Source: a virus
Taxonomy: Duplodnaviria > Caudoviricetes
DNA: 64,000 bases
Strand: one strand, 5' to 3'
Virus record (IMG/VR): IMGVR_UViG_3300048881_000780
The notes under the pieces are model-generated. The model worked only from the letters and a program-made list of their open reading frames with translations, made no database searches and was not told the DNA's origin. Shown one piece after another: positions 141 through 55,548 of the stretch. Numbering within the stretch: position 1 is the first letter of the stretch; each line of letters starts with the position of its first letter. Both the position numbers and the translations under genes were made by a program.

Positions 141-155
141 TAACACGGTGTGTCA
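141..155. promoter_or_regulatory. TAACAC-N3-GTGTTA-family palindromic box overlapping an extended -10
   Basis: TAACAC-GGT-GTGTCA; the minus strand reads ...GTGTTATAAT upstream of the ORF starting at 114. Confidence 0.7.
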
Positions 156-191
156 CGGTACGGCCCTATAGGCGATAGGAATCTACGCAGT

Positions 192-1535
192 TCATAGTTT
201 TGGGTTTTTCTTCTCCCATTTTGATAAACTAGAGCTAACCTCTTGAATTTCTTCAATTAGTTTCTCTGTTAATCGTTCTTTTGACTTGAATATCTTCTTA
301 AATTCTTTCATTTTCTGAGTCTCGTCCTTAACTAATAGCTTCTTTTCCTTAACTTCTTTCTTTGTCATTCGGTAGATGGACATATCAGCTAAATAATCAC
401 AATTCACAAACTTCTTTTTCTTCAGATACTCGATATATGTCTTTCTATCTTCAAGCTTGTGGGCCTTCTCAAAGTGCTTCTCTTCGATGAATCTAATGAT
501 TTCATTACTTTTGTTAATTGCATTTATCGAAGACTCCAATAGTAGCTCATATCTTCTTTTAACTACCTTTAAGCGCTCTTTTGTGAATATTTCAATGTAC
601 TCTCGTGGATCATTAAAGGTCCACACGGTGTTATCTTTGATTAGATTGTAAACGGGAGAAAAACTAACTCTTGTTTCAAGTAGGGACTCAATGTCAGCTA
701 TTTTCAACTTCCTCCCCTTATGAAATACAAGCTCAATATTTACATTATTTTTCTTTGATCTATCTAGATAATCCTTAAGACTTCCCTCTTCTATGAGATC
801 TCCCAATTTTTGGTTAATTTTCTTCGCGTCCATTCCTCTTGGTAATTCAGTTATATAGAACTTTCCTTTTACTTCACTAACTCCTAATTCAGTGTAGAAT
901 TTGCCATCATCTTCCAAGACTTTCTTAGTATATCCTCTATACTTAGGGATAAGTTTAGATACCCTTTTTCCTTCTAAAAATTGAATCATGGCCTTACAGA
1001 TATCTTTATGATGAAACGAAGGAATATTTGTTCTATAGCCCGAAGCGATCCCCTCTGCTCCATTTAATAGAACAAGAGGTAATTTAGGGAGAAAGAATTC
1101 GGGTTCAAAGTCTTTTTCATCGTAACTAGGTATCATATTCACTTGGTTTAGATCACCTAATAGTAAAAGTTTAGCAATTTCTCCAAGTTTACATTCGATA
1201 TACCTCGCTGCCGCAGGAGTTGTCTCCATTCTCTCTCCGAAACTACCTTTTCCTTCAATTAATGGATAATTATTTGCAAATACATAATCTTGAGATAATT
1301 TTACAAGAGTAGATTCAACTGATGTATTTCCGTGAGGATGTAGAGTTAGTGTATAACCCGCGGCGGAAGCAACCTTTAACAGACCCTTTGATAAATTCTT
1401 GTATAAAATCCAAAGTGCTCTTCTTTGACCAGGTTTTAGACCATCTGTACTATATGGTATAGCTCGATCTTTAAGAGTATAAATTTGATACTCATAATAT
1501 TCTGATAAGATCACTTTCTTAGTTTCATTTGTCAT
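192..1535 (-). CDS. Type IIA DNA topoisomerase subunit A (GyrA/ParC/T4 gp52-like, no C-terminal domain)
   Basis: DGLKPGQRR, HPHG, PLIEGKGSFG, AAARY (catalytic Tyr), LPLVLLNGAEGIASG motifs; only 447 aa. Confidence 0.93.
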   Translation of the reverse strand: MTNETKKVILSEYYEYQIYTLKDRAIPYSTDGLKPGQRRALWILYKNLSKGLLKVASAAGYTLTLHPHGNTSVESTLVKLSQDYVFANNYPLIEGKGSFGERMETTPAAARYIECKLGEIAKLLLLGDLNQVNMIPSYDEKDFEPEFFLPKLPLVLLNGAEGIASGYRTNIPSFHHKDICKAMIQFLEGKRVSKLIPKYRGYTKKVLEDDGKFYTELGVSEVKGKFYITELPRGMDAKKINQKLGDLIEEGSLKDYLDRSKKNNVNIELVFHKGRKLKIADIESLLETRVSFSPVYNLIKDNTVWTFNDPREYIEIFTKERLKVVKRRYELLLESSINAINKSNEIIRFIEEKHFEKAHKLEDRKTYIEYLKKKKFVNCDYLADMSIYRMTKKEVKEKKLLVKDETQKMKEFKKIFKSKERLTEKLIEEIQEVSSSLSKWEKKNPKL

Positions 1536-1572
1536 TATATTCTCTTTTGTTTAGCTTCATTTAAATATTTTC

Positions 1573-3507
1573 TCATATTGAATCAACTCCATTTCTAAAG
1601 AGTTCTTTTCGAGGGCCTGAATCTTTAGAAAAGCAAATAGATAGTACTTTTTGGATTTCACTTTCATCATCGATTAGCAATGTTTGATACTCAGTCTCTT
1701 TCATTAAGTAATCCCAGGCTTCTCTACTCATTTCACCAAGACCTTTATTCCTATTTATACGTTTAATTTTTAAACTTTTTTTACTCTTTAATTTTTCCAA
1801 TTCACTATCAGTTGAGCAAAATAATAGCCCCTTATTTGTTTCTAATTCATAGAGTGGAGCTTTTGCTAACTTAACTTGTCCATTTTTAAAAAGCTCAGGC
1901 CAAAACTTAAAAAAGAAATTAATTAGGAGTGTATTTATATGGCCCCCATCAACATCCGAATCTGCAAGAAATACTATTTCTGGAAATCTCATCTCTTCTC
2001 TATCTGAAGACTTTGATAAATCTAATCCAATTGCAGATATAATATCTTGATACTCTTGGTTTTTAATTACGTCCTTAATGTCGCACGATAAAACATTTAA
2101 AGGTTTTCCCTTAAGGGGTATCCCACCTTGAGTTTCTTGATCACGAGAACTTCTAAGTCCGGCGATCGCAGAGTCTCCCTCGCATATAAATAGTTGACAC
2201 TTACTTCTATCTTTTCTTGCATTGGCATCTAATAATTTTGCTACTTTCTTTTTTCTAGATTTTTTTGCAAGCTTTGATGCCTCTTTTAAAAAATCCTGCT
2301 GTTTTCTCTTTTTAGCTCGCTCAATAACTTGTTCTAAAAAGTCCTTGTTTCTTCTGAAAAACAAAGACATTGATTCACCCATTGCACTCTCTATGGCCTT
2401 TTCTAGAAATGAGTGTTTCACCATCTTTCTCTTAGTTTGAGATTCAAATCTGGCGTTTGGAATAACTAGATTTATGACAAATACCATTCCCATACATATA
2501 TCTAAATCAGATATATCAATCTTTTGTCTCTTGGCCTCTTTCTTTAATTTATCTTTTATCGAATTAATAAAGAACCTTCTAACCTTATCGTGATGATAAC
2601 CACCATCAAAAGTTGGTGTTGAATTTACAAATGAAATAAACTCTTCTCTTTCAGCTGACTTTTTATTAAAAAAAGTAAGTATATCTAAATCAATTAACCC
2701 CTTTACAGGTTTCTTCTTAGAGTCTTTTGTTACATATGTATGTTGATATCTTTTAACTAGGTAATTACCTTTATGACTAGGAAGTAGAGGTATTAACTCT
2801 TCTAATCCCTTTTTAGTAAAAAATACTTCTTTATTAAACGTAAATTTAAGACCTGGGTTTATATATGATAAATCGATAATTCTTTTTCTTATATAGGATT
2901 CATCAAGGAGTGCGTCCCCATATACTTCAGGAGACAACTTAAGAGTTATTTTTACACCAGATTTTCCTGAAAATTTCTTGGTTCTTTTTTCTTTTATTTT
3001 ATTTGCACCATCAACAAATACAACAGTCTTCTCTTTTTTCTTTGATTTGTGTCTAACTGTTACCTCAAATAAATCAGAAGTTAAGCATGTGGCAGATGAA
3101 CCTACTCCATTTTGCCCAAGTGTTCTAGAGAGGTAGCCATTCTCATCTGATTCATTATCACCAAACTTTGACCCTACTCGGTACTCAGAGTAAACAGGTA
3201 CTATCTTACTAACATCGAAACCAATACCGTCATCTTCAATAGTAATAGTCTCTCTATCCTCACTTAGAGTTACTTTTATATGTTTAACATTACCTCTTAA
3301 GTATTCATCAATAGAGTTGTCTATAATCTCCTCGATGGCCTTATTTTTTGCCTGGTGAAATTGAAATTCAGAAAAAACTAATTCTTTATCTTTGTAAGTA
3401 TGTGTTTTTAGACCTTCTATACTATTTGAACCAAATGTTAATTCTACCCTATTTCTAGAATGCCAACGCTGTGACTTTTTCTCGATAATAGCTTCTTTTT
3501 TTGCCAT
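1573..3507 (-). CDS. Type IIA DNA topoisomerase subunit B (GyrB/ParE-like)
   Basis: GHKL motifs EIIDNSIDE, DDGIG, GQNGVGS; TOPRIM motifs EGDSA, PLKGKPLN, DSDVDG, KGLGEM. Confidence 0.94.
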   Translation of the reverse strand: MAKKEAIIEKKSQRWHSRNRVELTFGSNSIEGLKTHTYKDKELVFSEFQFHQAKNKAIEEIIDNSIDEYLRGNVKHIKVTLSEDRETITIEDDGIGFDVSKIVPVYSEYRVGSKFGDNESDENGYLSRTLGQNGVGSSATCLTSDLFEVTVRHKSKKKEKTVVFVDGANKIKEKRTKKFSGKSGVKITLKLSPEVYGDALLDESYIRKRIIDLSYINPGLKFTFNKEVFFTKKGLEELIPLLPSHKGNYLVKRYQHTYVTKDSKKKPVKGLIDLDILTFFNKKSAEREEFISFVNSTPTFDGGYHHDKVRRFFINSIKDKLKKEAKRQKIDISDLDICMGMVFVINLVIPNARFESQTKRKMVKHSFLEKAIESAMGESMSLFFRRNKDFLEQVIERAKKRKQQDFLKEASKLAKKSRKKKVAKLLDANARKDRSKCQLFICEGDSAIAGLRSSRDQETQGGIPLKGKPLNVLSCDIKDVIKNQEYQDIISAIGLDLSKSSDREEMRFPEIVFLADSDVDGGHINTLLINFFFKFWPELFKNGQVKLAKAPLYELETNKGLLFCSTDSELEKLKSKKSLKIKRINRNKGLGEMSREAWDYLMKETEYQTLLIDDESEIQKVLSICFSKDSGPRKELFRNGVDSI

Positions 3508-3530: not shown

Positions 3531-3545
3531 TAACACTTTGTGTTA
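3531..3545. promoter_or_regulatory. Perfect TAACAC-N3-GTGTTA box upstream of the topoisomerase operon
   Basis: TAACAC-TTT-GTGTTA, about 24 bp from the subunit B start; the minus strand gives TG-T-TAACAT followed by an AAGGA RBS. Confidence 0.75.
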
Positions 3546-3788
3546 TCGTATATTTTAACATGTGATTCACTAATTATTTAAAATTTGGTAAGACCCAACC
3601 TAAAAACAACATGTTAAGATTGAAGAATATTGAAATTATCGTGTACACAATAATTATAGTGCTATCTAAAAAAAATATTAAAATAACGAAAATACCTAAT
3701 GAGTAAACAGTGACTTATAGTTGCAGACAATATGAAAAACCTGTAATAACAGTAATGTAACCAGTTAACCTAAACTCAACCTTTTTAC

Positions 3789-3817
3789 TTGAGTGACGCA
3801 CTCAGTCATGCTAAAAT
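3789..3817 (+). promoter_or_regulatory. Sigma70-like promoter of the 3857 lipoprotein with an overlapping palindrome
   Basis: TTGAGT-17bp-TAAAAT (with TG extension); TGAGTG-ACG-CACTCA inverted repeat at 3790-3804. Confidence 0.55.
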
Positions 3818-6425: not shown

Positions 6426-6427
6426 AA

Positions 6428-6781
6428 CTAGGTTGGTAGAATTCTAACTTTCCCATCTGATAAGTGAGCAACTTTACACGATGTCCAGGTTTCTTTTTTC
6501 TTATTTCTTGTTGTCCAGTCTGCGACGAGATATGGATCATAGAAAATCTCTACACTCCATTTATGATTACTATTTTCAAACAAAGAAACTAACTCTCCCT
6601 CAATAAATGCGTGTACATTTTTTTGCCTCTCTCTTAGTACTCTCTCCCTTCCCTTTTTACCTACAACTAATCTGCAATTGATAAGAGTTATAGCATTAGT
6701 GTAAGCGATTACCTTACCAGTCTTTTTATTTCTTACTGAAAAACAGCCTTTATGTAAGTTTTTATATACTTGGACAATCAT
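6428..6781 (-). CDS. Conserved phage-type hypothetical protein
   Basis: VYKNLHKGCFSVR...GRERVLRERQKNVHAFIEG...YDPY pattern; start reassigned to ATG 6781, which overlaps the dam stop (ATGA). Confidence 0.75.
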   Translation of the reverse strand: MIVQVYKNLHKGCFSVRNKKTGKVIAYTNAITLINCRLVVGKKGRERVLRERQKNVHAFIEGELVSLFENSNHKWSVEIFYDPYLVADWTTRNKKKETWTSCKVAHLSDGKVRILPT

Positions 6782-7533
6782 TTCTTCACCCACAAAACCT
6801 CTAATCTCTTTGAGTTTTGAGTATCGATTGTCTTATAAAGCTTTTTCCACCCTAGTTGATCGTAAATCTCATTATCATATCCAGATAATAGGCAATGGCC
6901 TTTAATCTTGCTTAAAACATTTACTAGTTCTTGATGATCAGTATTTGTTAATTCAAACTTGTATGATTTTTTTGATACCCTTAGATTATGTAGATATGGA
7001 GGATCAATATAGAAAGTCGTATGTGACTTATCATATCTTTGTATACAGTCCTTCCAATCAAGTCTCTCTATGATAACTCCTCTTAATCTCTCACTAAAGA
7101 ATTCTAAATATTCTAAATAATTCTTAAATCCTGTTGCGGGAGAGGAGTTTTGAGAAATCGAATTCCTAAATCCGGTGTTATTATTTATAGAATCACCAAT
7201 ACCCATAAATGATTTTATGATTGTTTTGGCCGCTCTCTCTACGGGACAAAATGAATATAATCTGGCCTCGTCGTATACCTCTCTTGAGTATGGGGTAAAT
7301 TGGAGATATCTCTTAAGTTCTTGATATCGATCTCTAACTACTTTAAAAACATTAACTATTTCACCGTCTATATCATTATAGACTTCATTTTTAACTCTAT
7401 CTTTAAATAATAGAATTGTTCCACCTCCCCCAAAAGGTTCTACATATGTCTTAGATGGAGGTAGATTAGCTAAAATCCATTTCCTTGATGTGAACTTACC
7501 GCCAAAATAATTTATAAGAGGTCTTTGCTTCAT
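6778..7533 (-). CDS. dam: DNA adenine N6-methyltransferase (Dam/D12 class)
   Basis: YFGGK, YVEPFGGGG (SAM binding), YNDID, DPPY catalytic motif; target sequence not determinable. Confidence 0.9.
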   Translation of the reverse strand: MKQRPLINYFGGKFTSRKWILANLPPSKTYVEPFGGGGTILLFKDRVKNEVYNDIDGEIVNVFKVVRDRYQELKRYLQFTPYSREVYDEARLYSFCPVERAAKTIIKSFMGIGDSINNNTGFRNSISQNSSPATGFKNYLEYLEFFSERLRGVIIERLDWKDCIQRYDKSHTTFYIDPPYLHNLRVSKKSYKFELTNTDHQELVNVLSKIKGHCLLSGYDNEIYDQLGWKKLYKTIDTQNSKRLEVLWVKK

Positions 7534-7567: not shown

Positions 7568-7582
7568 TAACACCTCGTGTCT
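7568..7582. promoter_or_regulatory. Palindromic box between divergent dam and SNF2 genes
   Basis: TAACAC-CTC-GTGTCT in the 80-bp divergent gap. Confidence 0.65.
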
Positions 7583-7613
7583 ATATTACTACTATGTAGT
7601 ATATAATAGTTAT

Positions 7614-9713
7614 ATGAGTATTTTAGATATTGAATTTGGGCAAAATAAGACTACGATGTACGATGTTGTAAATGCATTAAGTACTTTTAATAATTACGAT
7701 CAGGATGAAAAAAGATGGCAAGAAATGCTAGAAATCCATTTTCAAAAAATTGGTCGAACTTATGAAAGAGAAGTTCATATATCTAAAGAGAGTATTATCG
7801 ACTTTAAAATGGACCGCATAGGCATTGAACTTAAGACAAAAGGCCGAGTTAGAGATGTATATCGTCAAATAAAGAGATACCTAGAAACCGATGAGATTGA
7901 TGAGATCGTATTACTTACAACAAAGAATTTTTCACTACCATCAAAAATAAATGGAAAAACTGTAAGAGTTATCAATAAAAGTTTCAATATCCTTAAAAAT
8001 CAAAAAAGTAAGAATAGAAATATAGAGAGAGACCCTGGTACTTATGGCACAATCGTTTACTCAAGTGAAATTAATTCTTGGAAACTAGATGTTGACGCAA
8101 ATGTCTCCATGAGACTTAAGAGAATTTTAGATTTCTTACCTAAGACATCGAGACCGCCATTTATTATTAAGAATACACCGGAAAGGTGCGCTGACTTAAA
8201 TTGGGTTATGACTAGATATCCTCTTACTATATCTAAAAAGGATCATAAGTTTCTAAACAAAAAAGAAAGTGAGTTTAAAGAGTTTATTTCTTCTTGTGAT
8301 GAAATACTTATGAATAAATCATACTCTATTGATGTTGATCTAACTGATACATATAAATTAAGAAGCTATCAATCTCAATATGTTGGATTAGCTGGAAAAG
8401 TTAAAAGAATCTTTAATGCCGATGACACTGGTCTTGGAAAGACTTTAGAGTGTCTTGCTCATATCGTAGACGTTGGCAAATTTCCAGTAGTCATATGTTC
8501 ACAAACAACTAATCAGATACAATGGTTTGAAGAAGCTTCAAAGGCAACTAATTTAAAAATTGCTTTTTTATCAAAGGGTAAACTTAAAGAATCTGACTTA
8601 GATGCAGATATCTATATAACTAGGTACTCACTACTTGCTAAACATATGGACTACTTTCTCGCTAAAGATATCGACTCTATTCACTTTGACGAAATTCAGG
8701 AACTTAGAAATTCTGGTAGTGATAAATACAATGCGGCCTATACATTATCTCAATTTTGTAACGGAGTAACTGGTTACTCAGCAACCCCGATCTACAATAG
8801 AGGTAGTGATGTTTTTAATATTTATACTATTATTGATAAATCAATTCTAGGGAGTTGGTCTGAATTTTCAAGAGATTGGTGTATTAACACATTTCAAGAC
8901 GATAAAGGTGATATTAAAGATCCTGTTGCACTAAGGTCATACCTTATTGAGATAAATAAAATGATCAGAAGAACAAGAGAAGATGTTCAATTAGAACTTC
9001 CACCTCTAGATATTACACCATACCTAATTGAGCACGATAAAAAAGAAATCGATCGATTTGAATCTCTACTAAAAGATCTAGCTATTAAAACTCTTGAAAG
9101 TAAGGATGAATTCGAAAGAGGTCGCTTATCTAACCAGTTAGATATGAAAGCTCGTGAGATGACTGGTATTTCAAAAGCCCGCACGGCGGCGGCTTTCATT
9201 AGGGATTTAATTGACCAAGGTAGACGGCCTGTTGTTGTTGGTTGGCACCGAGAAGTATGGAATATACTGAGTGAGGAGTTATCTGATAAAAACCTTGTTT
9301 TCATAACTGGAAATGAAAATCCAAAACAAAAAGATCTAAATAAGAAGAAGTTTATAAATGATGAAGCTGACGCTCTTTGTGTTTCAATCAGAAGTTGCGT
9401 TGGTATTGATGGTCTTCAGGAAGCCTCTAGCGATATTGTATTCATTGAATTTGATTGGTCGCCAGCTGTCCATAAACAAGTAATAGAGAGACTTTGGCGA
9501 TTTAAACAGCGTAATACTACAAGTGTTTACTACTTAATAGCTGAAGCTGGTACAGATCCAGCTATGATTGAAAAACATGGTGTCAAGAAACAACAATTAG
9601 AAGGCTTTGTAAATGGTGAACAATTGGATGAAAATGCATTTGGTGGATCAAAGAGCAATAGACCTTCTGGAATTGAATTTGCTAACTCTATTTTAAAAGG
9701 GAAGAAGAAATAG
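7614..9713 (+). CDS. SNF2-family helicase/ATPase with an N-terminal PD-(D/E)XK-like nuclease domain
   Basis: DDTGLGKT (Walker A), FDEIQ (Walker B), SATPIYN, GIDGLQ, WSPAVHKQVIERLWR; N-terminal EREV...IDF...GIELK...QIKRY. Confidence 0.85.
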   Translation: MSILDIEFGQNKTTMYDVVNALSTFNNYDQDEKRWQEMLEIHFQKIGRTYEREVHISKESIIDFKMDRIGIELKTKGRVRDVYRQIKRYLETDEIDEIVLLTTKNFSLPSKINGKTVRVINKSFNILKNQKSKNRNIERDPGTYGTIVYSSEINSWKLDVDANVSMRLKRILDFLPKTSRPPFIIKNTPERCADLNWVMTRYPLTISKKDHKFLNKKESEFKEFISSCDEILMNKSYSIDVDLTDTYKLRSYQSQYVGLAGKVKRIFNADDTGLGKTLECLAHIVDVGKFPVVICSQTTNQIQWFEEASKATNLKIAFLSKGKLKESDLDADIYITRYSLLAKHMDYFLAKDIDSIHFDEIQELRNSGSDKYNAAYTLSQFCNGVTGYSATPIYNRGSDVFNIYTIIDKSILGSWSEFSRDWCINTFQDDKGDIKDPVALRSYLIEINKMIRRTREDVQLELPPLDITPYLIEHDKKEIDRFESLLKDLAIKTLESKDEFERGRLSNQLDMKAREMTGISKARTAAAFIRDLIDQGRRPVVVGWHREVWNILSEELSDKNLVFITGNENPKQKDLNKKKFINDEADALCVSIRSCVGIDGLQEASSDIVFIEFDWSPAVHKQVIERLWRFKQRNTTSVYYLIAEAGTDPAMIEKHGVKKQQLEGFVNGEQLDENAFGGSKSNRPSGIEFANSILKGKKK

Positions 9714-41978: not shown

Positions 41979-41992
41979 AATAGGAAGTTATT

Positions 41993-42502: not shown

Positions 42503-42512
42503 ACCAATAAAA

Positions 42513-42535: not shown

Positions 42536-42632
42536 CCTCATATAACTATCTAATAATTCAATATTAACATTCTCATCATATTTTGGTGTTATACTCTCTT
42601 CGCACAAAAAATATCCCACGGGAGTTAAATAT

Positions 42633-43001: not shown

Positions 43002-43010
43002 TATTGAATT

Positions 43011-43042
43011 TACTTATATATACAATTTTGTATATATAAGTA
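43011..43042. repeat. 32-bp near-perfect AT-rich palindrome between convergent genes
   Basis: TACTTATATATACAA-TT-TTGTATATATAAGTA; second hairpin at 43092-43121. Confidence 0.8.
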
Positions 43043-43142
43043 GATTAATGTGAAAACTAAATTCGGGTAAGAGTGGAATTTAAACGTTAAAAATCACTAG
43101 ATATGATCACATTTAGTGATTACATTCCTATGAAACTGGAAA

Positions 43143-43916: not shown

Positions 43917-43917
43917 A

Positions 43918-44877
43918 TTACTCTCTCACTAATCTTGAGTTTCTATATATTTTTGACAGCATCCCATCAATTTTATCTACAAAGTTATACACTGGCGGAG
44001 CATGAAATTTTTGTAATGAATAAGGTCTCTTTGATTTCATGTAACCACTATCTTTAATTGCTTTATTTAAAGTTTCTAGGGTTTCTTCTACCTCGTCAAC
44101 ACAAACTTTCTTATACCAAACTTTATTATCATTATACCATACAGGACGAATAGCTTCTTTCGCCACGTCTTTTACGTCATATTGTAATCCAACTAGAAAT
44201 AAGTATACCTTATCTTTTAGACCTCTCTCAATCATGACTTTTAAATAGTCTTTCATTGTAAGAAGAAGAGAAAGGGCTTTAACGTCATTTATGGCCTTAT
44301 GACCAATAAACTCAACCCCATGATATGTCATCAAACTTTCTTGCTTGTGATTAATGAACTCAGTCCACGGACCATCTTCGTAAGAACAGAGACAAGTTGG
44401 AACTTCATCTTTAGTGAATCCCATCTTTTTAAAACCCTGTTTATCAAAGGACATATTGTGAGCAATAATAAAATCAACATCCTTTAAAAAATCTTTCACT
44501 TCTTGATTATCTATTTTATGTCCGGCCACCATTTCATCATCAATACCCGTAAGCTCAGTAATAAATTCAGATATCGGCATACCTGGATCATTATATCGAT
44601 GAAGGGTTCCTAGTTGCCCTAAGAACTTAAAGTTCTCATCAAAACAAAGCTTTACCATAGCAAGCTCTATAATTTCATCAGTGGTTGATAATTTGGTACC
44701 AGTTGTCTCGAGATCAAAAGTCACTAGAACTTTAGACCCTTCAGGTGCCTTATCCAATTTAGGAAAAGTTAAATCAAATAGCTTTTCTAGATTCTCATCA
44801 TCTAATTTTGATACTTCAACCTTTGGGACTTCTAACCCTTTGATATCAATAAAATTTTCATTAAAAAACTTTTTCAT
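43918..44877 (-). CDS. DEDDh 3'-5' exonuclease (DNA polymerase III epsilon-like)
   Basis: FDLETTG (ExoI), AHNMSFD (ExoII), HKAINDV (ExoIII). Confidence 0.92.
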   Translation of the reverse strand: MKKFFNENFIDIKGLEVPKVEVSKLDDENLEKLFDLTFPKLDKAPEGSKVLVTFDLETTGTKLSTTDEIIELAMVKLCFDENFKFLGQLGTLHRYNDPGMPISEFITELTGIDDEMVAGHKIDNQEVKDFLKDVDFIIAHNMSFDKQGFKKMGFTKDEVPTCLCSYEDGPWTEFINHKQESLMTYHGVEFIGHKAINDVKALSLLLTMKDYLKVMIERGLKDKVYLFLVGLQYDVKDVAKEAIRPVWYNDNKVWYKKVCVDEVEETLETLNKAIKDSGYMKSKRPYSLQKFHAPPVYNFVDKIDGMLSKIYRNSRLVRE

Positions 44878-44933
44878 AATTTTTCTCCTAATTCTATGAT
44901 AGCACGCACAAAAGAGCTCAACAACTTATTTAT

Positions 44934-44948
44934 TAACATATTACGTTA
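44934..44948. promoter_or_regulatory. Variant palindromic box upstream of the exonuclease
   Basis: TAACAT-ATT-ACGTTA. Confidence 0.55.
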
Positions 44949-44952
44949 TAGT

Positions 44953-47346: not shown

Positions 47347-47363
47347 AAATCCTTTTTAATTCA

Positions 47364-47399
47364 TAACGCTATATGTTATAATGTTAACAAGAAGTGTTA
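47364..47399. promoter_or_regulatory. Tandem pair of palindromic boxes in the divergent mutS / ATP-grasp gap
   Basis: TAACGC-TAT-ATGTTA (47364-47378) and TAACAA-GAA-GTGTTA (47385-47399), 21 bp apart, with TG-T-TATAAT overlapping the first. Confidence 0.72.
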
Positions 47400-47421
47400 A
47401 CTTAAGCAATGAGCTTTAAAA

Positions 47422-48141
47422 ATGAAACAACTATGCCTTTTTGACAATAATAACAACCAAATGGATCCATTTGTTGAGAAGCTCGTTCAACTCCACAGTT
47501 TACAAGGTGGACAAATAAAAAAGATTTCTTATTTCAATAGTTTAAAAAAGGGAGACCTTCTGGTTCCATTCTCATTTAGTGATGAATGGAGAGAATTTAT
47601 GGAGTCAAATGAGGATCTATTAGAGTATACATTCTCTAAAGATGCAAACTTCATGTCTCGAGTAGAATTTACAAATTATCTAATAGAGAAAGATATCCCA
47701 ACACTTTGTCATCTTGATCATAAAACTTGCGAACTCCCATTTATCCTAAAGGGAATGTCTTCCAACAGAAAGAGTAAAACTACTGAAATCAAATCACTAA
47801 ATGACTATAGTTGTGCAGTGGAGCAATTTGATAGCTTTATAGTTCAAGAAAAGAAAAATATTGAAGAAAATTTAAGAGTTCTGATTGTAAACTCTGAACC
47901 TGTCCTCTTTTATGTTAAATCCAAAAGTAACCCAATAGAAAAAGGCGTTATCCCTGAGGATATAATGAAATATGTTACATACATTATTAAAGATCTCAAT
48001 TTATCCCTGGCAAATATCTGCATAGTTAAGAGCGCTGGAACATTATACGTAAACAAGATCAACTTTTTTCCATGCTTACATAATTCTTTAAAAATTAATG
48101 AAAATATTCATGAAGTTATATGGAGTCACTATTTGAAGTAG
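47422..48141 (+). CDS. Degenerate RimK-like ATP-grasp fold protein
   Basis: PFILK, FIVQE, NLRVLIV, LNL..., INFFP follow ATP-grasp order; catalytic acids and Gly loop not conserved. Confidence 0.6.
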   Translation: MKQLCLFDNNNNQMDPFVEKLVQLHSLQGGQIKKISYFNSLKKGDLLVPFSFSDEWREFMESNEDLLEYTFSKDANFMSRVEFTNYLIEKDIPTLCHLDHKTCELPFILKGMSSNRKSKTTEIKSLNDYSCAVEQFDSFIVQEKKNIEENLRVLIVNSEPVLFYVKSKSNPIEKGVIPEDIMKYVTYIIKDLNLSLANICIVKSAGTLYVNKINFFPCLHNSLKINENIHEVIWSHYLK

Positions 48142-48188
48142 ATCATTTTACGATAATAGATATATAGACAAAAAAAGAGGAAAATTTT

Positions 48189-48500
48189 ATGAGAGAATCC
48201 ATTATTGAATTAATCGAAGAATGCCACCCAGATGGACTTACTTTTCATTCAGATATTATTCATGGATGGATCGAAGTAAAGAGAGAGGTACTTGAAATAC
48301 TTGGAATCGCAGATAAAATCAGCTCTCACTCATCGCAAGAGGGAGATAGAGTATTTCTTGAAAGTGATGTCGACTCTAAGATATTTCTATCCGCCCTTAG
48401 GCAATTTGAAATTAATGAAGAGGATTATCTAATAAGACGAAAAGAGTATGAAAACACTGCCACCATTAGATTTTACGATAATTACTGCAATTTCAACTAA
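48189..48500 (+). CDS. Conserved small phage/plasmid hypothetical protein
   Basis: HSD..HGW..V.....LGI...IS..S...G..VFLE.D.D pattern; GAGG RBS. Confidence 0.7.
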   Translation: MRESIIELIEECHPDGLTFHSDIIHGWIEVKREVLEILGIADKISSHSSQEGDRVFLESDVDSKIFLSALRQFEINEEDYLIRRKEYENTATIRFYDNYCNFN

Positions 48501-48530
48501 GTAGAAGGAAGGATTTCTTACTTTCAAAGT

Positions 48531-48549
48531 TAACGCTCTGTGTTACTAT
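48531..48549 (+). promoter_or_regulatory. Palindromic box with extended -10 of a probably leaderless gene
   Basis: TAACGC-TCT-GTGTTA running into TG-T-TACTAT, 6 nt before ATG 48556. Confidence 0.7.
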
Positions 48550-48555
48550 TAAAAC

Positions 48556-49026
48556 ATGAAAAGCACACACATAAAAATACTTACTGCCATCCTAATTACA
48601 TTTAACATCTCTGCATTCACTTGCAAGACAGAGAATCAAAAGAGAACGAATTACTGTAAATGCGTAACAAAAAAGACTAAATCTCTTGGTAAAGATGCAA
48701 TCTTTGAAAGAGAGAAGAGATTAGAATACAGTGAAATATGTTCCAAGAGGCACAATAGACTTCTTGAACATAACCAAGTTATGCGTAACTTATTTGATAG
48801 AGTTAATGAGGATTATAAAAATCAGCTAACTCAAAGATATGACACTATGTTAATGAGTGATGCCGAGTTCTTTTTACATTGTAATTACGTAAAAATTAAA
48901 GCTCTCTGTAGCGATTATAATACCCCATCGGGATTATTTAGATGCTACAAGAATGTCGAAATAGAAACTTATGATACCGTCTATAGGTCTTGTTTAAATC
49001 CTGTTCATAGACAAGTAAATATATAA
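48556..49026 (+). CDS. Secreted Cys-rich hypothetical protein
   Basis: Signal peptide ending ISA; eight Cys. Confidence 0.7.
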   Translation: MKSTHIKILTAILITFNISAFTCKTENQKRTNYCKCVTKKTKSLGKDAIFEREKRLEYSEICSKRHNRLLEHNQVMRNLFDRVNEDYKNQLTQRYDTMLMSDAEFFLHCNYVKIKALCSDYNTPSGLFRCYKNVEIETYDTVYRSCLNPVHRQVNI

Positions 49027-49036
49027 GAGTATCTGC

Positions 49037-50005
49037 CTACACTTTAAAGTAGGCAGTATTATCATCTCTGATTACTCTCTTATAGTTTTTTGCATCTTTT
49101 AGCTTTTTAAAATCTGACAAAGTTCCATAAAGAAGAACCTCTTCAACACCTTTAATTTTAGAAATTCCTCTAATCGATCTCTTAGAGATATCAATAACAG
49201 CAACTCTTTGTTTAGGTCCCTTAGTTGAAGTAGCCTTGTCAATCGTATTAAAAATTATCTCAAAATCGTAATCTTTAGATGAACCAACATCTCTAACAGT
49301 GATCTTATCAACAACATTCTTTAGTCCCATTAGGACTTTGAAATCCTTTCTCTGTGGGATACCAATTGTTGAAGTAATAATAGGATCAAGCGCCTTATAA
49401 CTTCTACTAAAGTTCTCTACACCAGATCTTCTAAGCACTGAGCTTGCTACTTTAGATTTACTTCCTTCACTTGATCTCTTAGTTTTTCTTGATTTAGTCA
49501 TAAGTTGACTCTCTAGAATAGTCTTAAACTCTACTTTATTTCTAGAGTCGCTATATGCCATCTCTAATGCATGTAAGATAACATCAGCTGTGTAATCTCT
49601 TTTTAATCTACTCGATAAAGTTGGGCCTAAGTAACCGTCTCTATCTGCTTGGATCGCTAACTTCATTGCCTCAAATGAAAGATTGATATCTTTAAACTTT
49701 ACAGCATTAACAATTCTCACATACCTCTTAATAGATGAGATTATTTCTTTTTCAGAGATTATATATTTCTTTTCTTTAGCTGTACTTTCAATAAATAGAA
49801 ATACTCTTGCTAGATTTTGAACTGTATCTTTATTTCTAACAAATGCGCTGTCACCAACTTTCTCTTTTACAGTTTCTCTAAGCCAAACTCTTGCTTCTTG
49901 AGTCTTTGTCAATTCTGGACGTGCCTTAGTTACTGTCTTTTTACGAACTGTTGATACTTTTTTCTTAGCTGTCTTCTTTGATTTCTTAGTTACTGCCACA
50001 CTCAC
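49037..50005 (-). CDS. Very basic hypothetical protein with Lys-rich N-terminal tail
   Basis: GTG start with AAGGAAGG RBS; KKSKKTAKKKVSTVRKK. Confidence 0.75.
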   Translation of the reverse strand: MSVAVTKKSKKTAKKKVSTVRKKTVTKARPELTKTQEARVWLRETVKEKVGDSAFVRNKDTVQNLARVFLFIESTAKEKKYIISEKEIISSIKRYVRIVNAVKFKDINLSFEAMKLAIQADRDGYLGPTLSSRLKRDYTADVILHALEMAYSDSRNKVEFKTILESQLMTKSRKTKRSSEGSKSKVASSVLRRSGVENFSRSYKALDPIITSTIGIPQRKDFKVLMGLKNVVDKITVRDVGSSKDYDFEIIFNTIDKATSTKGPKQRVAVIDISKRSIRGISKIKGVEEVLLYGTLSDFKKLKDAKNYKRVIRDDNTAYFKV

Positions 50006-50220
50006 AACACACCTTCCTTAATATATTTCAAACTTTTATTAAAAGTCTTTTCAATTTAATTCTATTACTGATAAATCGGCTCTTCAAGAAAAATAGTATA
50101 ACGAATTTTGTTATATTTTAAATTTGCCTATTTTCAACCACTTATACACATACATTCTAGTTTTCTTGAGCGATTCTAAAGAAACCTTAAGAAAAATTTG
50201 CCAAATATTCTTGATACTAA

Positions 50221-50245
50221 GGTTCGATTCTCGCCACCTCCACCA
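50221..50245 (+). other. Orphan 3' end of tmRNA (or tRNA-Ala); att-site-like
   Basis: GGTTCGATTCTCGCCACCTCCACCA = T-loop, 3' T-stem, 3' acceptor strand, discriminator A, CCA; 5' T-stem strand and gene body absent. Confidence 0.7.
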
Positions 50246-50298
50246 AAAATGTTGATTAATAAAGGGTATCGGAATGATTTGTGAAAAATATTAAAAAA

Positions 50299-50313
50299 TA
50301 ACACTAAATGTCA
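50299..50313. promoter_or_regulatory. Variant palindromic box
   Basis: TAACAC-TAA-ATGTCA. Confidence 0.55.
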
Positions 50314-50357
50314 AGATTTATGTAAACTTAAGGAGTGGAAACATTTTTTATTTAAGA

Positions 50358-50378
50358 GGGCCCAAAGAATCTGGGCCC
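50358..50378 (-). terminator. GC-rich hairpin after the SGNH lipoprotein
   Basis: GGGCCCA-AAGAATC-TGGGCCC just past the stop at 50387. Confidence 0.55.
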
Positions 50379-50386
50379 ATAGATAT

Positions 50387-52447
50387 TTAGTTAACTGGAA
50401 AAACTCCATCGCCAGAACCACTCGTATTATCTGTCCATGCCGCATGTACAGGGTCACCAAAGGCCAACTCATTAGTAGTCTCTTTAAGCGTCCAGCTACC
50501 AATCGTATTGTCAGATAGGATATCTAATTGTGTTAGATCCTCACTTGCCTCCCACATAATTGCGTAGTGATAATGAAGTCCATTTACGGTGTCAGCATCG
50601 ACAATTCCAGATCTAAATAATTCTGCGTATTTTCTTGGATTACTATTTTGAACATTTTGAATGGCCACTCTAATTGGAACGTGATTATCTGCAATTTTTC
50701 TCAAAAAGATATCCGGTGAAGAAGCTGGTAGCGGGTCTACTAGATCGTGCATATAGAGCATATAGAACTTCCCTCTAGTATTTCTTGGTAGAATATCTAC
50801 AGCTGTACCTTTATCCGAAGTCTCTTCATTAATCTTTACCCACGATGAGTGGTTAATGTCATCAATGGAAGCAGGATTATCTGAAAGATATAATTCATAT
50901 GTATTCATCTCTCTAGAAATACCGTTTCCTGCGACAAGTCCAGTTACTTCAAGAGCAGTTGGTACCCCTTCACTCGCAAAAGTCATACTCGTCGGAAATT
51001 GTGATGAACCATTGTAAAACCCTCCATATGGAGCGGTAATATCACCAAAGAGTCCCTCATAACTGTAGACATTAGATGAGTCGTGAATACCTGGATGAAG
51101 AACTGTGTTTGGAGAATTAATATTTCTAAATCCAACATACTTAGATGGCTCTGTAGACATTGTCCCCTGGGCCACCAATTTATAGTAATTAATAATTGGA
51201 CCATATTGATTACCAACAATTGAGTCATATAGTACACAATCCGCATATAATCTCTTTGCCTCTGTACCTGTATAATCAGGGTGAACTCCATCTGGAACAA
51301 GAGATTCCACATTGTACTTATTTACATAACTTCTAATTCCAGTATGAGAATCAATATAAAGGTAACCATAGTCTTGGCCATATTGTTCAAGTCCTGAATT
51401 CCAATCTAGATATCTCGCGTCTGTTAACTCTCTACCAAGAGCTGAGTATAAATCATCCCAATATGAAGGCCAAATAGAAGCTATAACAACCTCTGCGCCA
51501 TCCTGGGCCAATCTTGATACAATTTGATCGATATTATCTAAGTAATCAGTTTTGTTGGTAGCTCCCCTTGCATCATTATATCTAGCATCATTAATACCTA
51601 TGGCAATAAAGTAGAGATCTGCATCTTCCGCTGCGATTGTATCAATCATGGCCAATGTGTCTTTTGTAGTATGTCCACCAACACCATGATTGACATAATT
51701 GGCACCTGGGTATTTATTTTCTATAAAAGTCGTAAACCCCGTAATCTTACCAGGCGTACCATTACCTTGTTCGGTAATTGAATCCCCAACCCAAACTACT
51801 TTCATCGCATTATCAGACATATTAGAAAGTAGATCATTTAAAATTTCTTTATTAGTTCTATCTTCAAAAACTGCGGAAACATATGTTTTAGCAATAGTGA
51901 AACTACCTACTGACGAACCATCAACTGATACGTCAAAAGACCCTTTATTAGTTGACGAGACAAACATGTAATTTCCATTCATCAAAACAGAAGATCCACC
52001 CTGAGTAACGCTAACGACTCCATTTCCTGAGACGGGAACCTTTACCCACTGAGAAACCCCTTGAGGTACCTCAATATTTATTCCGCCAGCAAGAGAAGCA
52101 TCTGACCCAGGGAAGACAAATGCCATCATTTTTCCATTTATAGTACTGTAAACAATTGCTTCTTTATCAGGAGCAGTTGCCAAAATAGAGGCCTTATGAA
52201 CACTTCCATCGAAGCTAAACTCTAAAAACTGAGCAAGCCTATCTGGAACAGTTAAAACAGTATTTCCAAGCAGGGCCGCGTCACCTAGAACGACTTCATT
52301 TACACTATCTAACCTGATTTCATAAATGGCCTGAATTGGGTTTTGTTTTTCAATTTTAGGGTCAAATTTTCTCTTAAATGATAGATTCTTGTCACAACCT
52401 ACAAATGATAAAAGTAATGACAAGGTGATAAGTAACTTGAATTTCAT
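50387..52447 (-). CDS. Lipoprotein with SGNH/GDSL hydrolase domain
   Basis: Lipobox FVGC; GDSIT, NHGVGG, GIND, DGVHP catalytic blocks. Confidence 0.88.
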   Translation of the reverse strand: MKFKLLITLSLLLSFVGCDKNLSFKRKFDPKIEKQNPIQAIYEIRLDSVNEVVLGDAALLGNTVLTVPDRLAQFLEFSFDGSVHKASILATAPDKEAIVYSTINGKMMAFVFPGSDASLAGGINIEVPQGVSQWVKVPVSGNGVVSVTQGGSSVLMNGNYMFVSSTNKGSFDVSVDGSSVGSFTIAKTYVSAVFEDRTNKEILNDLLSNMSDNAMKVVWVGDSITEQGNGTPGKITGFTTFIENKYPGANYVNHGVGGHTTKDTLAMIDTIAAEDADLYFIAIGINDARYNDARGATNKTDYLDNIDQIVSRLAQDGAEVVIASIWPSYWDDLYSALGRELTDARYLDWNSGLEQYGQDYGYLYIDSHTGIRSYVNKYNVESLVPDGVHPDYTGTEAKRLYADCVLYDSIVGNQYGPIINYYKLVAQGTMSTEPSKYVGFRNINSPNTVLHPGIHDSSNVYSYEGLFGDITAPYGGFYNGSSQFPTSMTFASEGVPTALEVTGLVAGNGISREMNTYELYLSDNPASIDDINHSSWVKINEETSDKGTAVDILPRNTRGKFYMLYMHDLVDPLPASSPDIFLRKIADNHVPIRVAIQNVQNSNPRKYAELFRSGIVDADTVNGLHYHYAIMWEASEDLTQLDILSDNTIGSWTLKETTNELAFGDPVHAAWTDNTSGSGDGVFPVN

Positions 52448-52613
52448 TAATGCTCCGATAAAGGGTTTCTTTATACTATTTTAATGTTTTAGATAAATTT
52501 ATCCCTTTTTATACATGTATTACTTTAAATTATAACACGCATCGGTATGATTTAGATCAATCATTAGTGATTTTATGGCCATTAGAGGTGATTAAACGCT
52601 TAATTTGTCCTAT

Positions 52614-53051
52614 TTATTTAAATAATCCGATAAAATAGAATCTCGATCTTTCACAAAAGTATCCACTCCCAGTCTTATACAGGAAGCCACTTTCATGTAA
52701 TCTCAAAAGTATAAGGTTTGATATTTTCAAAGAAGTTCTGATTTTTGATTTAATAAATTCGCTAGAAACCTTAAACTTATAGTTTTTACTGGCATCAACC
52801 TCCTCTTTTAAAATATATAGAAGTTTCTGTACTTTGGATTCATATTTTGAGTTAAATTTCTCTACATCAATAAATGATTTCTTAAAATTCTCCTTAGATC
52901 TATAGAATTTTGGAATATCACATTCATACATTGGCATATACTCAACTATATATTGCCAAGAGTCAGATTCCTTATACTTAACAAATTTAGTGATCACATA
53001 TAACTTGCCATTTGATTTACAAATATAAATACTATCTTCTCTAAGTTTCAC
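52614..53051 (-). CDS. Hypothetical protein; N-terminus resembles DUF1653, C-terminus a possible winged helix
   Basis: GKLY...IVEY..MY....FYRS...F...F pattern; GTG start with AGGAG RBS. Confidence 0.6.
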   Translation of the reverse strand: MKLREDSIYICKSNGKLYVITKFVKYKESDSWQYIVEYMPMYECDIPKFYRSKENFKKSFIDVEKFNSKYESKVQKLLYILKEEVDASKNYKFKVSSEFIKSKIRTSLKISNLILLRLHESGFLYKTGSGYFCERSRFYFIGLFK

Positions 53052-53062
53052 TAGAAAGCTCC

Positions 53063-53908
53063 TTATTCATCACTGGTAAAATTAACGCCATCAACTAGAA
53101 TTGATTCTAGATACTTTCTCGTTACGTGATCAAGCCCCTGCATGATCTCGGTTTTCTTCTTTTTTGGGCCAATAATTGAAGCTCCACCATTATTTCCATT
53201 TTCACCTTGAACTATTGGTCTCCAATTTATTTTTTGAATATATAACTCTGGACTATAAGCGTAGACACTAGAAACTCCATCTGTCACGGCGTCTCTAAGT
53301 TTTACGCAATATCTAATATTATCTAAATCATTAGGAAGATCAGCTACTCCGCCAAGACCACCAATACCTGGTAGATTTTCAGCTGTATAATTAAAGATTT
53401 TAAAAGAAAAGATATCCGCGTATCCCGCGGCGGTTCCCTTAACTCCTGAAGTTGGATTTAATACTGTAAAAATCTCTTCTCTTTCTACAATTTCTTGATA
53501 AATATTACATTCTTTTCCAATTCCACACTCAAGAACTTCTTGTCCATTTTCAGCACTTGAAACTAATCCTAAATCGACCCATGTAACTCTATTGTGAGGA
53601 TCTTGAGGATGACCCAAGTCTATTGCTGGTTGGCAGTCATTATATGTTGGTGCAATCGATACTGAAATATTAGAAACCTTCTCGCCTGCATCATAAACAA
53701 ACCCTTGTTCATCATGCTCACTACAATCACCCATGTGAGAAGTAGAAAGCCTCACTTCCCAATCTGAACCTGGTAGAGGTTCCTTAGTGGCCTCATTTAA
53801 TCCAATAGTAAACTCTTCTTGAGTAACAGTTACTCTAATTTTAGATGCCGCCCCATGGGAGTTAAAATTAATTAACATCAAAAAAAGAACTAAAATATAA
53901 TTTTTCAT
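53063..53908 (-). CDS. Secreted hypothetical protein
   Basis: Signal peptide, several Cys, GAGG RBS. Confidence 0.75.
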   Translation of the reverse strand: MKNYILVLFLMLINFNSHGAASKIRVTVTQEEFTIGLNEATKEPLPGSDWEVRLSTSHMGDCSEHDEQGFVYDAGEKVSNISVSIAPTYNDCQPAIDLGHPQDPHNRVTWVDLGLVSSAENGQEVLECGIGKECNIYQEIVEREEIFTVLNPTSGVKGTAAGYADIFSFKIFNYTAENLPGIGGLGGVADLPNDLDNIRYCVKLRDAVTDGVSSVYAYSPELYIQKINWRPIVQGENGNNGGASIIGPKKKKTEIMQGLDHVTRKYLESILVDGVNFTSDE

Positions 53909-53919
53909 ACTTCTAACCT

Positions 53920-55473
53920 CTACAAGAATCCATTAAATAAACAACTAGACTCATTGTACTTATAGTAAAATCTATATGTCGGACCATCGTCTCTCTTATA
54001 TGTAACATCAACAAAATACTCTCCGTTTCGATAGATTAAACTCTCATCTGAACCAGCCAGTATCGTTGCACCAAATAGTTCATCTTTAAATATCTGAGGT
54101 ATTGTTGAAGAAATACAGCTTGGTGCATCTCCTTGAATAACATTTGCACCAAGATCAATATCCGAATTATTTTCAGGTTGAATTAAGAATGTTCTACTGT
54201 ATTTAGTATCATTTCCACCTACGATTAAATTAAACTCACTTGACTCTGCTCCAAATTGATCAGTTAGAGACATAACCATTACAAATGATTCCGTTTTTGC
54301 GCTTAACTCACATCGAATATCTGTAACATCACTTTGATCCATGCCAAGACAATTTCGAAGTGTTACTCCACTTGTTAATCCTAGGATATTGTTTATATTA
54401 AAGCTAACAACTCTAACATCTCCGTCATCTGTATTTGGAATAAGTTGAGGAAGTTTTATATCAAAGCTTAAACCATTTCTAGAATCCTCGACTCCGTTAT
54501 GAAGAAGAGGAGTAAAACTATCTTCTCCAAGTTGCCATTCAACATTAAAACTAGTTTGACCACTTGATAGAGCTAATTGACAGGCATACTGAGAACCCCT
54601 CTCTAGAATCGAGCTTTCATCAACAATGAACTCTCTCTCTAAATATGACCCCGAATTTCGTGCCGCGATTTCATTTGGGTCTTGAGGATTGACTTTAATT
54701 TTTTCTGTACAAGAGTACGGATCACATGGCCAACCAATTGGAGATGAAACCCATTTTAAATCACTAGTATTCATTGAGTTCGCATTTCTAATTAATTGAT
54801 CTTGCACACTAGATCCACTTGGAGCACAATTACAATATGGCCCAATGATATCCATTCTACATTTAATTTTCTTTCTTCTTTTTACACAGTATCTTTGTTC
54901 AAAGGTAGCATTACAAACTCTCTTTGATTTATTGATTACAATATTCTGTATACCTTGCAATGCACTCTTATCTTCATAACCAGCTGGACATGAAAAGGTT
55001 TGTTCAATTTTTTGAATATCTGAAGGAGTACATCTTGAAGTATCTACATTGTGATCTAATAGAAATTGATTCTTTATTGATTGTCCGTAATCTCCATTCA
55101 TTATATTGCTGGCGCAAATTTCTGAACTATCTATACCTCTCTCACCACTTCTTCCATTTAAGTTGATAGAGATATTATCAAGTAGTCCCGTTAAAAATAC
55201 TATATTTGAAGCATTCTCATCTACATTTCTAGAGGGCATATTAATACTAGTAGACCTTAGCTCCTTTGAATAAAATCTAAATTCATCTATATTTTCGAAT
55301 ATAGGATCAGTAATAAAGTTTAATACTTCTTCTTGTGCCCAATATGTCGGTACAATAGTTCCTAAGTCATTAATATCATCATTTATACAACCCAAATTAG
55401 ATGAACAAGTCACCTCTTGAGAGTAACTACATAATGTAATTATAAATATGAAAAAAACCCTTAAGTACTTCAT
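53920..55473 (-). CDS. Secreted Cys-rich hypothetical protein
   Basis: Signal peptide; well over a dozen Cys, CPAGY motif. Confidence 0.75.
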   Translation of the reverse strand: MKYLRVFFIFIITLCSYSQEVTCSSNLGCINDDINDLGTIVPTYWAQEEVLNFITDPIFENIDEFRFYSKELRSTSINMPSRNVDENASNIVFLTGLLDNISINLNGRSGERGIDSSEICASNIMNGDYGQSIKNQFLLDHNVDTSRCTPSDIQKIEQTFSCPAGYEDKSALQGIQNIVINKSKRVCNATFEQRYCVKRRKKIKCRMDIIGPYCNCAPSGSSVQDQLIRNANSMNTSDLKWVSSPIGWPCDPYSCTEKIKVNPQDPNEIAARNSGSYLEREFIVDESSILERGSQYACQLALSSGQTSFNVEWQLGEDSFTPLLHNGVEDSRNGLSFDIKLPQLIPNTDDGDVRVVSFNINNILGLTSGVTLRNCLGMDQSDVTDIRCELSAKTESFVMVMSLTDQFGAESSEFNLIVGGNDTKYSRTFLIQPENNSDIDLGANVIQGDAPSCISSTIPQIFKDELFGATILAGSDESLIYRNGEYFVDVTYKRDDGPTYRFYYKYNESSCLFNGFL

Positions 55474-55518
55474 ATCTCTATTATATTCTTTTTTTAGGCA
55501 CTATTATTGTTCCAAAAC

Positions 55519-55548
55519 TTGACACGCTACGTTAACCATGGTTATAAT
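55519..55548 (+). promoter_or_regulatory. Consensus sigma70 promoter with overlapping box, HNH gene (leaderless)
   Basis: TTGACA-18bp-TATAAT, ATG 6 nt later; TGACAC-GCT-ACGTTA at 55520-55534. Confidence 0.72.

Follow-up and report, generated by a model that had tools for sequence, protein, structure and literature searches.

Does one short palindrome place most of the genes of a large mobile element under the control of a single protein? The question is raised by IMGVR_UViG_3300048881_000780, an IMG/VR virus record, in which the sequence TAACAC-N3-GTGTTA recurs in intergenic DNA. We analyzed a 64-kb stretch of this element (64,000 nucleotides; here called the window). An earlier note on the same DNA had proposed that a single regulator acts through the palindrome to coordinate a DNA-metabolism program, like a private SOS or KorA/KorB-type regulon. 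Judged by the arrangement of its copies, we consider the palindrome a rather probable operator of one homodimeric repressor that would be encoded on the element outside the window and would control the whole element.

The exact 15-bp palindrome occurred three times in the window (3531, 37539, and 41237), against an expectation of 0.00. When up to two mismatches were allowed, 14 matches were found in the whole window (2.64 expected), and 12 of these were intergenic, where 0.27 were expected under a first-order Markov model of intergenic composition that reached a maximum of 3 in 2,000 trials at this threshold. The remaining two matches, at 13313 and 35605 in approximately 60 kb of coding DNA, were at chance level. 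Thus, the predicted excess of the motif in intergenic over coding DNA persisted after correction for composition. The degenerate form TRACRY-N3-RYGTYA had nine exact matches, all nine of them intergenic, with 0.11 expected. At up to three mismatches, 18 intergenic sites were observed compared with 2.65 expected; six of them had exactly three mismatches, a class in which about 2.4 would be expected, so some of these copies, about two or three of the six, could be due to chance. All 15 copies listed in the earlier note were recovered, three perfect ones and five with one mismatch among them, and we added those at 37568 (two mismatches), 3602 (three), and 50099 (three).

To describe the anatomy of the site, 15 copies were oriented toward the gene that they face and aligned as a position matrix. 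The sites, their enrichment, their symmetry, and their register with promoter elements are all read directly from the sequence. The proximal, gene-side half was G/A-T-G-T-T-A, with G12, T13, T14, and A15 invariant, and the four bases past it ended in A-T (A in 13 and T in 14 of the 15 sites, this T lying at -7). Together, these bases form the composite RTG-T-TA-nn-A-T, an extended -10 promoter in fixed register with the palindrome, as anticipated from the observation that one half supplies the TG-n-TA. The TG extension was present in 14 of the 15 sites and the -10 hexamer was TATAAT four times, and the TG-n-TA-nnn-T of sigma-70-type extended -10 promoters was found at a plausible distance from the start codon. 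Upstream of the aligned sites there was no conserved -35.

The distal half was weaker than the proximal one but far over background, with T (13 sites), A/G (11/4), A (14), C (14), A/G (11/4), and C (9) in its six positions. The pooled half-site was W-T-A-A-C-R-y, and the 3-bp spacer had a fixed length and no sequence information. Where GTGTTA was present, a partner half 9 bp upstream (at most two mismatches) accompanied 14 of 19 intergenic occurrences versus 1 of 20 coding ones, so that the distal half is conserved beyond what belongs to the extended -10. The promoter of a DksA/TraR-like gene has a GTGTTA-type extended -10 and no distal half, which shows that the distal half is not required for this type of promoter. 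Among 28 deviating arm positions, 25 altered one arm only and 2 were compensated. Because deviations break the symmetry and seldom compensate, the constraint is one of sequence rather than of pairing, which points to a two-fold symmetric protein and not to a hairpin.

Three other accounts of the repeat were rejected. The half-site spacing is 9 bp and not the approximately 23 bp of the -35/-10 pair of a sigma factor; most sites are flanked by a gene start in just one direction and so are not artefacts of bidirectional promoters; and one-sided arm changes, together with an empty Rfam search, argue against a cruciform, a hairpin, or an RNA element. The individual sites and the control promoter are as follows (distances in nucleotides, nt; ORF, open reading frame).

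141 to 155, minus strand: one mismatch; TGACAC-acc-GTGTTA and then TAAT, roughly 30 nt upstream of an ORF whose start is near 114 and which extends past the left edge of the window.
3531 to 3545, minus strand: perfect; precedes the GyrB-like topoisomerase gene (1573 to 3507, minus), the proximal half giving TGTTAACAT; immediately upstream there are another extended -10 (TGTTAAAAT) and a TACGATAA box, and the site also covers about +3 to +17 of that upstream promoter.
3602 to 3616, plus strand: three mismatches, weak and maybe a chance match; with TGTTAAGAT, 245 nt before 3857 (plus).
7568 to 7582, minus strand: two mismatches; in an 80-bp divergent gap, giving the extended -10 (TGTTAAGAT) of a Dam-like methylase gene (6778 to 7533, minus) and also lying over the -35 region of the SNF2 gene (7614, plus), which is probably leaderless.
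22169 to 22183, minus strand: one mismatch; gives GTGTTATAAT, 26 nt before the GTG of a 135-amino-acid (aa) ORF that heads the DnaE operon.
22286 to 22300, plus strand: one mismatch; the right half, TTGTTA, is positioned like a -35, 18 nt before the TATAAT of the DnaB-operon promoter, at whose predicted start site there is an extra TTAACAC half-site.
37539 to 37553, minus strand: perfect, also as the 17-bp TTAACAC-N3-GTGTTAA; gives TGTTAATAT, 75 nt before the Clp ATPase gene (34679 to 37468, minus).
37568 to 37582, no strand assigned: two mismatches; an auxiliary copy 29 bp from 37539 without its own -10.
41237 to 41251, minus strand: perfect; gives TGTTATTAT, 27 nt before the ATG of recA (39934 to 41214, minus), whose predicted leader of about 12 nt begins at the Shine-Dalgarno sequence.
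41462 to 41476, plus strand: three mismatches; gives TGTTAATAT, 27 nt before 41499 (plus), the gene of a signal-peptide protein.
44934 to 44948, minus strand: three strict mismatches, exact to TRACRY-N3-RYGTYA; doubtful as a working operator, as it lies about 45 to 59 bp upstream of the likely start site of the exonuclease gene, where there is a compact TGCTATCAT promoter without a palindrome.
47364 to 47378, plus strand: two mismatches; the left one of two tandem copies with a 21-bp offset, giving TGTTATAAT toward 47422 (plus) and also overlying the position at which the opposing mutS promoter would start.
47385 to 47399, minus strand: one mismatch; right member of the pair, giving TGTTAACAT for mutS, whose start is more likely the ATG at 47340, and also lying over the start site of the plus-strand promoter.
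48531 to 48545, plus strand: one mismatch; gives TGTTACTAT, with 6 nt from hexamer to ATG (48556) and a predicted leaderless mRNA.
50099 to 50113, minus strand: three mismatches, weak; CGTTATACT, 94 nt before the gene of a basic 322-aa protein (49037 to 50005, minus).
50299 to 50313, minus strand: two mismatches; the distal half with the preceding T makes TTGACA, and the proximal half gives TGTTATTTT.
52533 to 52547, minus strand: three mismatches; proximal half perfect (GTGTTATAAT), distal half poor (TACCGA), 90 nt before a GDSL lipase-like gene.
55520 to 55534, plus strand: three strict mismatches, exact in the RY-degenerate form; 46 nt before 55473 (minus), and overlapping the -35 and spacer of a 12/12 consensus TTGACA-18-TATAAT promoter for an HNH gene (55555, plus).
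42584 to 42597, plus strand: control; GTGTTA-type extended -10 (TGTTATACT) without a distal half, before the DksA/TraR-like gene (42633 to 43001).

The position of the sites relative to predicted promoters followed a few patterns. At six of them (141, 3531, 22169, 41237, 41462, and 47385) the distance from TG to start codon was 26 to 32 nt, from which leaders of about 12 nt starting at the Shine-Dalgarno sequence are predicted. Most sites were centered near -18. The predicted placement varied among the others, some lying over a consensus -35 and some over the start site of a facing promoter, and since all of these placements would be occluding, they fit a repressor. The members of the tandem pair at 47364 and 47385 are two helical turns apart, and each carries the -10 of one promoter and covers the start site of the other. 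The site at 50299 lies 298 nt before 50005 and may drive a noncoding RNA or a long leader. Additionally, the two genes predicted to be leaderless, 7614 (a separate TATAAT, 6 nt, ATG) and 48556 (GTGTTACTAT, 6 nt, ATG), have no Shine-Dalgarno sequence (7600 to 7616 and 48540 to 48558).

The sites were also widely distributed among the transcription units of the window. Of the upstream gaps of at least 40 bp, 18 of 27 held a site. Apart from DNA-metabolism genes, these gaps precede the genes of the signal-peptide protein (41499), a Cys-rich secreted or lipoprotein-like protein (48556), the GDSL lipase-like protein (50387 to 52447), an acidic 517-aa protein (55473), and the basic 322-aa protein (50005). 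Among the nine gaps without a site, three had a TACGATAA box, one precedes the DksA/TraR-like gene, and the rest were short same-strand gaps. Since secreted, lipase-like, and unknown genes also have sites, the regulon would be element-wide, and the proposed DNA-metabolism program or private SOS response, for which there is also no LexA-like gene in the window, was not borne out. The part of the single-regulator proposal that stood is the one in which a dimeric factor acts at many promoters with its site covering the promoter, and the comparison with KorA/KorB fits such element-wide control. A DksA/TraR-type zinc-finger protein would bind RNA polymerase. The gene for this protein (42633 to 43001, plus strand) may escape the global control, its promoter being among the very few without a distal half.

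The reading that we favor is that of a global dimeric repressor. The promoters of the element would mostly be of an extended -10 type without a -35 (RTGnTAnnnT), with the operator fused to them in fixed register. The proximal GTGTTA would provide the TG extension and the first two bases of the -10 hexamer, with the operator center at about -18, so that a bound dimer and sigma would compete directly for the one strong element of the promoter. In a few cases the operator would cover the -35 and spacer instead, or the position at which a facing promoter starts. The predicted outcome is a global negative control that extends to nearly all transcription units. Expression at steady state would be low, with changes in copy number buffered, and would rise in a burst once the DNA enters a cell that has no repressor. 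Protein binding, repression, an element-encoded regulator, and this physiological logic are what we infer from the sites. Three palindromes with perfect 6+6 arms, all with the 3-bp spacer, are the signature of a dimer. The variable position of the remaining sites counts against an activator, which would need one fixed position. Good -10 hexamers, TATAAT in four cases and with TG in 14 of 15, indicate that the promoters should fire unaided, and no activator should be needed at 55520, where the promoter matches the consensus at 12 of 12 positions.

Several observations weigh against a repressor. Among the ORFs of the window we found no confident helix-turn-helix (HTH) or ribbon-helix-helix protein, and hence no regulator, and the element has no sequenced relatives. 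The promoter positions were predicted from sequence only. The better conservation of the proximal half means that part of the signal is simply promoter, and a site at nearly all promoters might just as well mark them positively as promoters of the element. Finally, unless it is partial, repression would seem costly for an element that has its own polymerase, helicase, and topoisomerase genes among the targets.

The main alternative is that the palindrome is a positive promoter code, in which an element-specific factor, either a dimeric activator that replaces -35 recognition or a sigma-like protein (59913 to 60815), is needed for initiation at promoters without a -35. The presence of a site in about two thirds of the upstream gaps and at nearly all recognizable promoters would suit a signature as well as an operator, most sites have no conserved -35 before them, the sigma-like protein shows region-2-like and region-4-like segments by eye, and the palindrome-free TACGATAA box at other gene starts hints at two promoter classes. 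However, a center at -18 is inside the footprint of RNA polymerase, on the TG extension, and is not a known activator position, and the site does not keep one position with respect to the -10 (-18, about -26, about -38, and +1 to +15). At 55520 the site is on a sigma-70 promoter with the full consensus, a -10 of this type occurs without a distal half at the DksA/TraR-like promoter, and, to our knowledge, two-fold symmetric sites with a 9-bp half-site spacing are not recognized by sigma factors. We regard a promoter code as unlikely on this evidence, and slightly more so in its specific form, in which an element-encoded dimeric factor, possibly together with the sigma-like protein, licenses the host RNA polymerase at about -18 of promoters without a -35. 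If a promoter code were true, the 361-kb element would have an orthogonal transcription system of an undescribed kind; in a weaker version, there may be a new repressor family whose half-site mimics an extended -10 and which controls more than 100 promoters. About as improbable as the promoter code in general is that a global regulator of the host binds the palindrome and that the promoters of the element are tuned to a host signal. The lack of a regulator gene in 64 kb and the coincidence of the proximal half with a generic low-GC extended -10 would agree with this, but more than 15 sites in 64 kb would be an unusual density for a host regulon, plasmids and phages normally bring their own global repressors, e.g., KorA (PMC2665229), and our literature search found no operator of such symmetric form.

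Two further explanations were considered. A LexA- or CI-like repressor inactivated by the element's RecA after DNA damage would account for the perfect box on recA (41237) and for the boxes on the mutS, exonuclease, helicase, polymerase, and topoisomerase genes, and the arrangement resembles the SOS system in that a palindromic box overlaps core elements of the recA and repair-gene promoters. The regulon extends beyond repair genes, however, and the sites are not confined to DNA metabolism. Pfam detected no S24 peptidase, and no HTH plus S24-peptidase (LexA-like) gene, in the window, and the palindrome matches none of the LexA boxes known to us; such a private SOS system is very improbable. 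Least probable of all, and in our view hardly credible, is a structural element, either a cruciform or hairpin promoter of the N4 virion-polymerase type with a 6-bp stem and a 3-nt loop or an RNA hairpin near the ribosome-binding site. The 6-3-6 geometry does resemble that of the N4 early promoter hairpins, and several sites are only 22 to 26 nt from the start codon. Against this, the 25 one-sided arm deviations break pairing and only 2 of the 28 are compensated, Rfam finds nothing, and, by the TA-nnn-T register, transcription would start downstream of the palindrome, which would then not be in the RNA at all.

A full-text literature search found no published description of a TAACAC-N3-GTGTTA operator, but the palindrome resembles several known systems in part. 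The closest functional analogue is KorA of RP4, a 101-aa dimer that acts at a 12-bp symmetric operator in seven promoters, with perfect high-affinity and degenerate low-affinity operator classes (PMC2665229), and within the KorA/KorB/TrbA/KorC network of IncP-1 plasmids (PMC4889941, PMC11790492). Both cases have a short symmetric operator at many promoters of one mobile element, with perfect and degenerate copies; recognition by a dimer and joint control of replication, transfer, and maintenance genes, known for KorA, are predicted here. In both, the operator is within the core promoter, as seen at the sequence level here, so that binding would occlude RNA polymerase. The systems differ in the operator itself (12-bp GTTTAGCTAAAC versus 15 to 17 bp for TAACAC-N3-GTGTTA), in the number of sites (7 on 60 kb versus about 15 to 18 on this 64-kb window), and in the fixed register with an extended -10 that is found here.

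With regard to the site itself, the C-protein box of Mollicutes is the closest analogue. HsdC, the C protein of Mycoplasma gallisepticum, represses via GTGTTA cores that overlap TRTGnTAWAAT promoters, and inverted-repeat C-boxes are reported for M. mobile and M. conjunctivae (PMC5282649). The GTGTTA core is the same in our element, and its TG is likewise the extension of a TRTGnTAWAAT-like promoter. However, the HsdC sites are direct repeats, (GTGTTA-N5)x2, while those described here are inverted with a 3-bp spacer; HsdC acts on one restriction-modification operon and a few extra promoters, while the sites here are spread over the whole element; and an Xre-type gene lies beside the HsdC site, while the Dam-like methylase gene (6778 to 7533) has a site and no C gene. 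A third comparison is with the stoperators of Cluster A mycobacteriophages, which are asymmetric 13-bp sites that are read by a monomer, depend on orientation, and block elongation (PMC9283540, PMC6550527). As would be the case here, they are dozens of sites for one repressor, mostly in short intergenic gaps, that silence nearly all of a mobile genome, but the sites in the window are two-fold symmetric and located on core promoters.

The search for the regulator within the window was largely negative. In agreement with the earlier note, no recognizable repressor was found, and none of the unknown ORFs had a confident DNA-binding domain by Pfam at E values up to 1, PHROGs, or PDB sequence searches. 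No KorA homologue, ParB domain or KorB-type partner, or Xre HTH was found in the 64 kb. The sole small DNA-binding-like protein in the window was the following weak candidate.

52614 to 53051, minus strand: orphan of 145 aa with an isoelectric point of 9.5 and a GTG start after AAGGAG.

AlphaFold models of this protein, which had low confidence (predicted local distance difference test values of 42 and 45), showed the secondary structure helix-strand-helix-helix-strand-strand. In a protein atlas, its C-terminal part was near winged helices of the HTH_36, IclR, and MarR types, a result at the level of a lead only (feature score of 0.94; structure template-modeling score of 0.55 to 0.59). The protein has an N-terminal beta domain and a probable C-terminal winged helix. 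A single full-length relative, 38% identical, was found on contigs of less than 1 kb. There is no link between this protein and the palindrome, and it is very unlikely to be the regulator. The basic 322-aa protein (49037 to 50005), which has a lysine-rich tail and two sites upstream of its gene, had no matches, the protein atlas included.

The element that carries the sites is a 361,129-bp plasmid-like orphan. Its RecA protein was recorded on one contig only, and the closest relatives of this RecA are only 35 to 42% identical. Neither phage and plasmid records nor viral contigs contained a match to the element. Short contigs identical to it (window positions 37000 to 56900) were found in a second hydrothermal-vent metagenome from a separate study, and thus the element is not restricted to one sample. 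In a scan of one metagenome, TTAACAC-N3-GTGTTAA gave scattered single matches only, with this contig not among them, and the multi-copy loci of that scan (L004 and L032) were unrelated tandem repeats.

The window has approximately 33% G+C and is densely coding, with an intergenic share of 3,604 bp (5.6%). Neither tRNA genes nor Rfam families were found in it, and the gaps of at least 200 bp contained no plausible small ORFs. Pfam identified a split type II topoisomerase, a Dam-like methylase, an SNF2 helicase, a dUTPase, a DnaE-type polymerase, a DnaB-like helicase, a Clp ATPase, a DEAD/ResIII helicase, RecA, a DksA/TraR-like protein, a DnaQ-like exonuclease, MutS, a GDSL lipase-like protein, an HNH protein, and a TrbI-like component of a type IV secretion system (T4SS). 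The labels given previously to the topoisomerase, Dam/SNF2, DnaE, DnaB, Clp ATPase, RecA, exonuclease, MutS, and HNH genes agreed with these results. The DnaE-type polymerase (16267 to 21738, minus strand; 1,823 aa) and the DnaB-like helicase (22356 to 24443, plus strand; 695 aa) are far above the usual length and are matched by Pfam only in part or in separate pieces, so that they may contain inteins or extra domains.

Other motifs were observed beside the palindrome. The TACGATAA box occurs at 3543 to 3550, 15627 to 15634, 16239 to 16246, 48149 to 48156, and 48474 to 48481, with the variant TACGATAT at 22314. It was always directed at the downstream gene, in four cases 30 to 43 nt before the start codon, and sits in short gaps without a palindrome. 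It may be the -10 (TACGAT) of promoters in a second class that has no operator, or else the target of the sigma-like protein. The latter (59913 to 60815, minus strand) is a 300-aa orphan encoded in a T4SS-like operon; its segments resemble by eye regions 2 and 4 of extracytoplasmic function sigma factors, and nothing was found for it by Pfam, PHROGs, or PDB sequence searches. Between 9714 and 9776 there are four copies of AACGTACGT[C/T], which forms the core of the 12-bp palindrome TAACGTACGTTA, with an exact 16-bp period (five matches versus 0.6 expected). This array fills the convergent gap between the SNF2 gene and a 412-aa gene, and its half-site resembles the operator variant TAACGT without a spacer; it could be a set of sites for another DNA-binding protein, an iteron, or a centromere. 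A 5-3-5 palindrome, GAGTG-acg-CACTC, at approximately 3795 to 3815 is located directly upstream of the extended -10 TGCTAAAAT and about 50 nt before gene 3857 (plus strand), and may be a site for a different regulator. The 381-bp gap at 50006 to 50386 includes, at about 50222 to 50250 on the plus strand, a stretch that resembles the 3' end of a tRNA (GGTTCGATTC...CCACCA) without a full tRNA gene; the gap may hold a small RNA gene, a long leader, or the remnant of an attachment site.

Overall, the palindrome appears to be a known control strategy in a new form on an unusual element, and the idea of a single regulator, which is drawn from the DNA sequence, is reasonable but unproven. The box already serves as a practical map of promoters and transcription units on an element most of whose genes are orphans, and the recA box at 41237 is a precise bait for the regulator. 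The compact 50-bp module of promoter, operator, and ribosome-binding site is a possible part for orthogonal control. If one protein does read the box, it would be a single switch for nearly the whole gene set of an uncultivated 361-kb element, including its own replisome, its recombination and repair genes, and its secretion machinery, and this would be KorA-type control at a scale and site density that have not been documented for plasmids.

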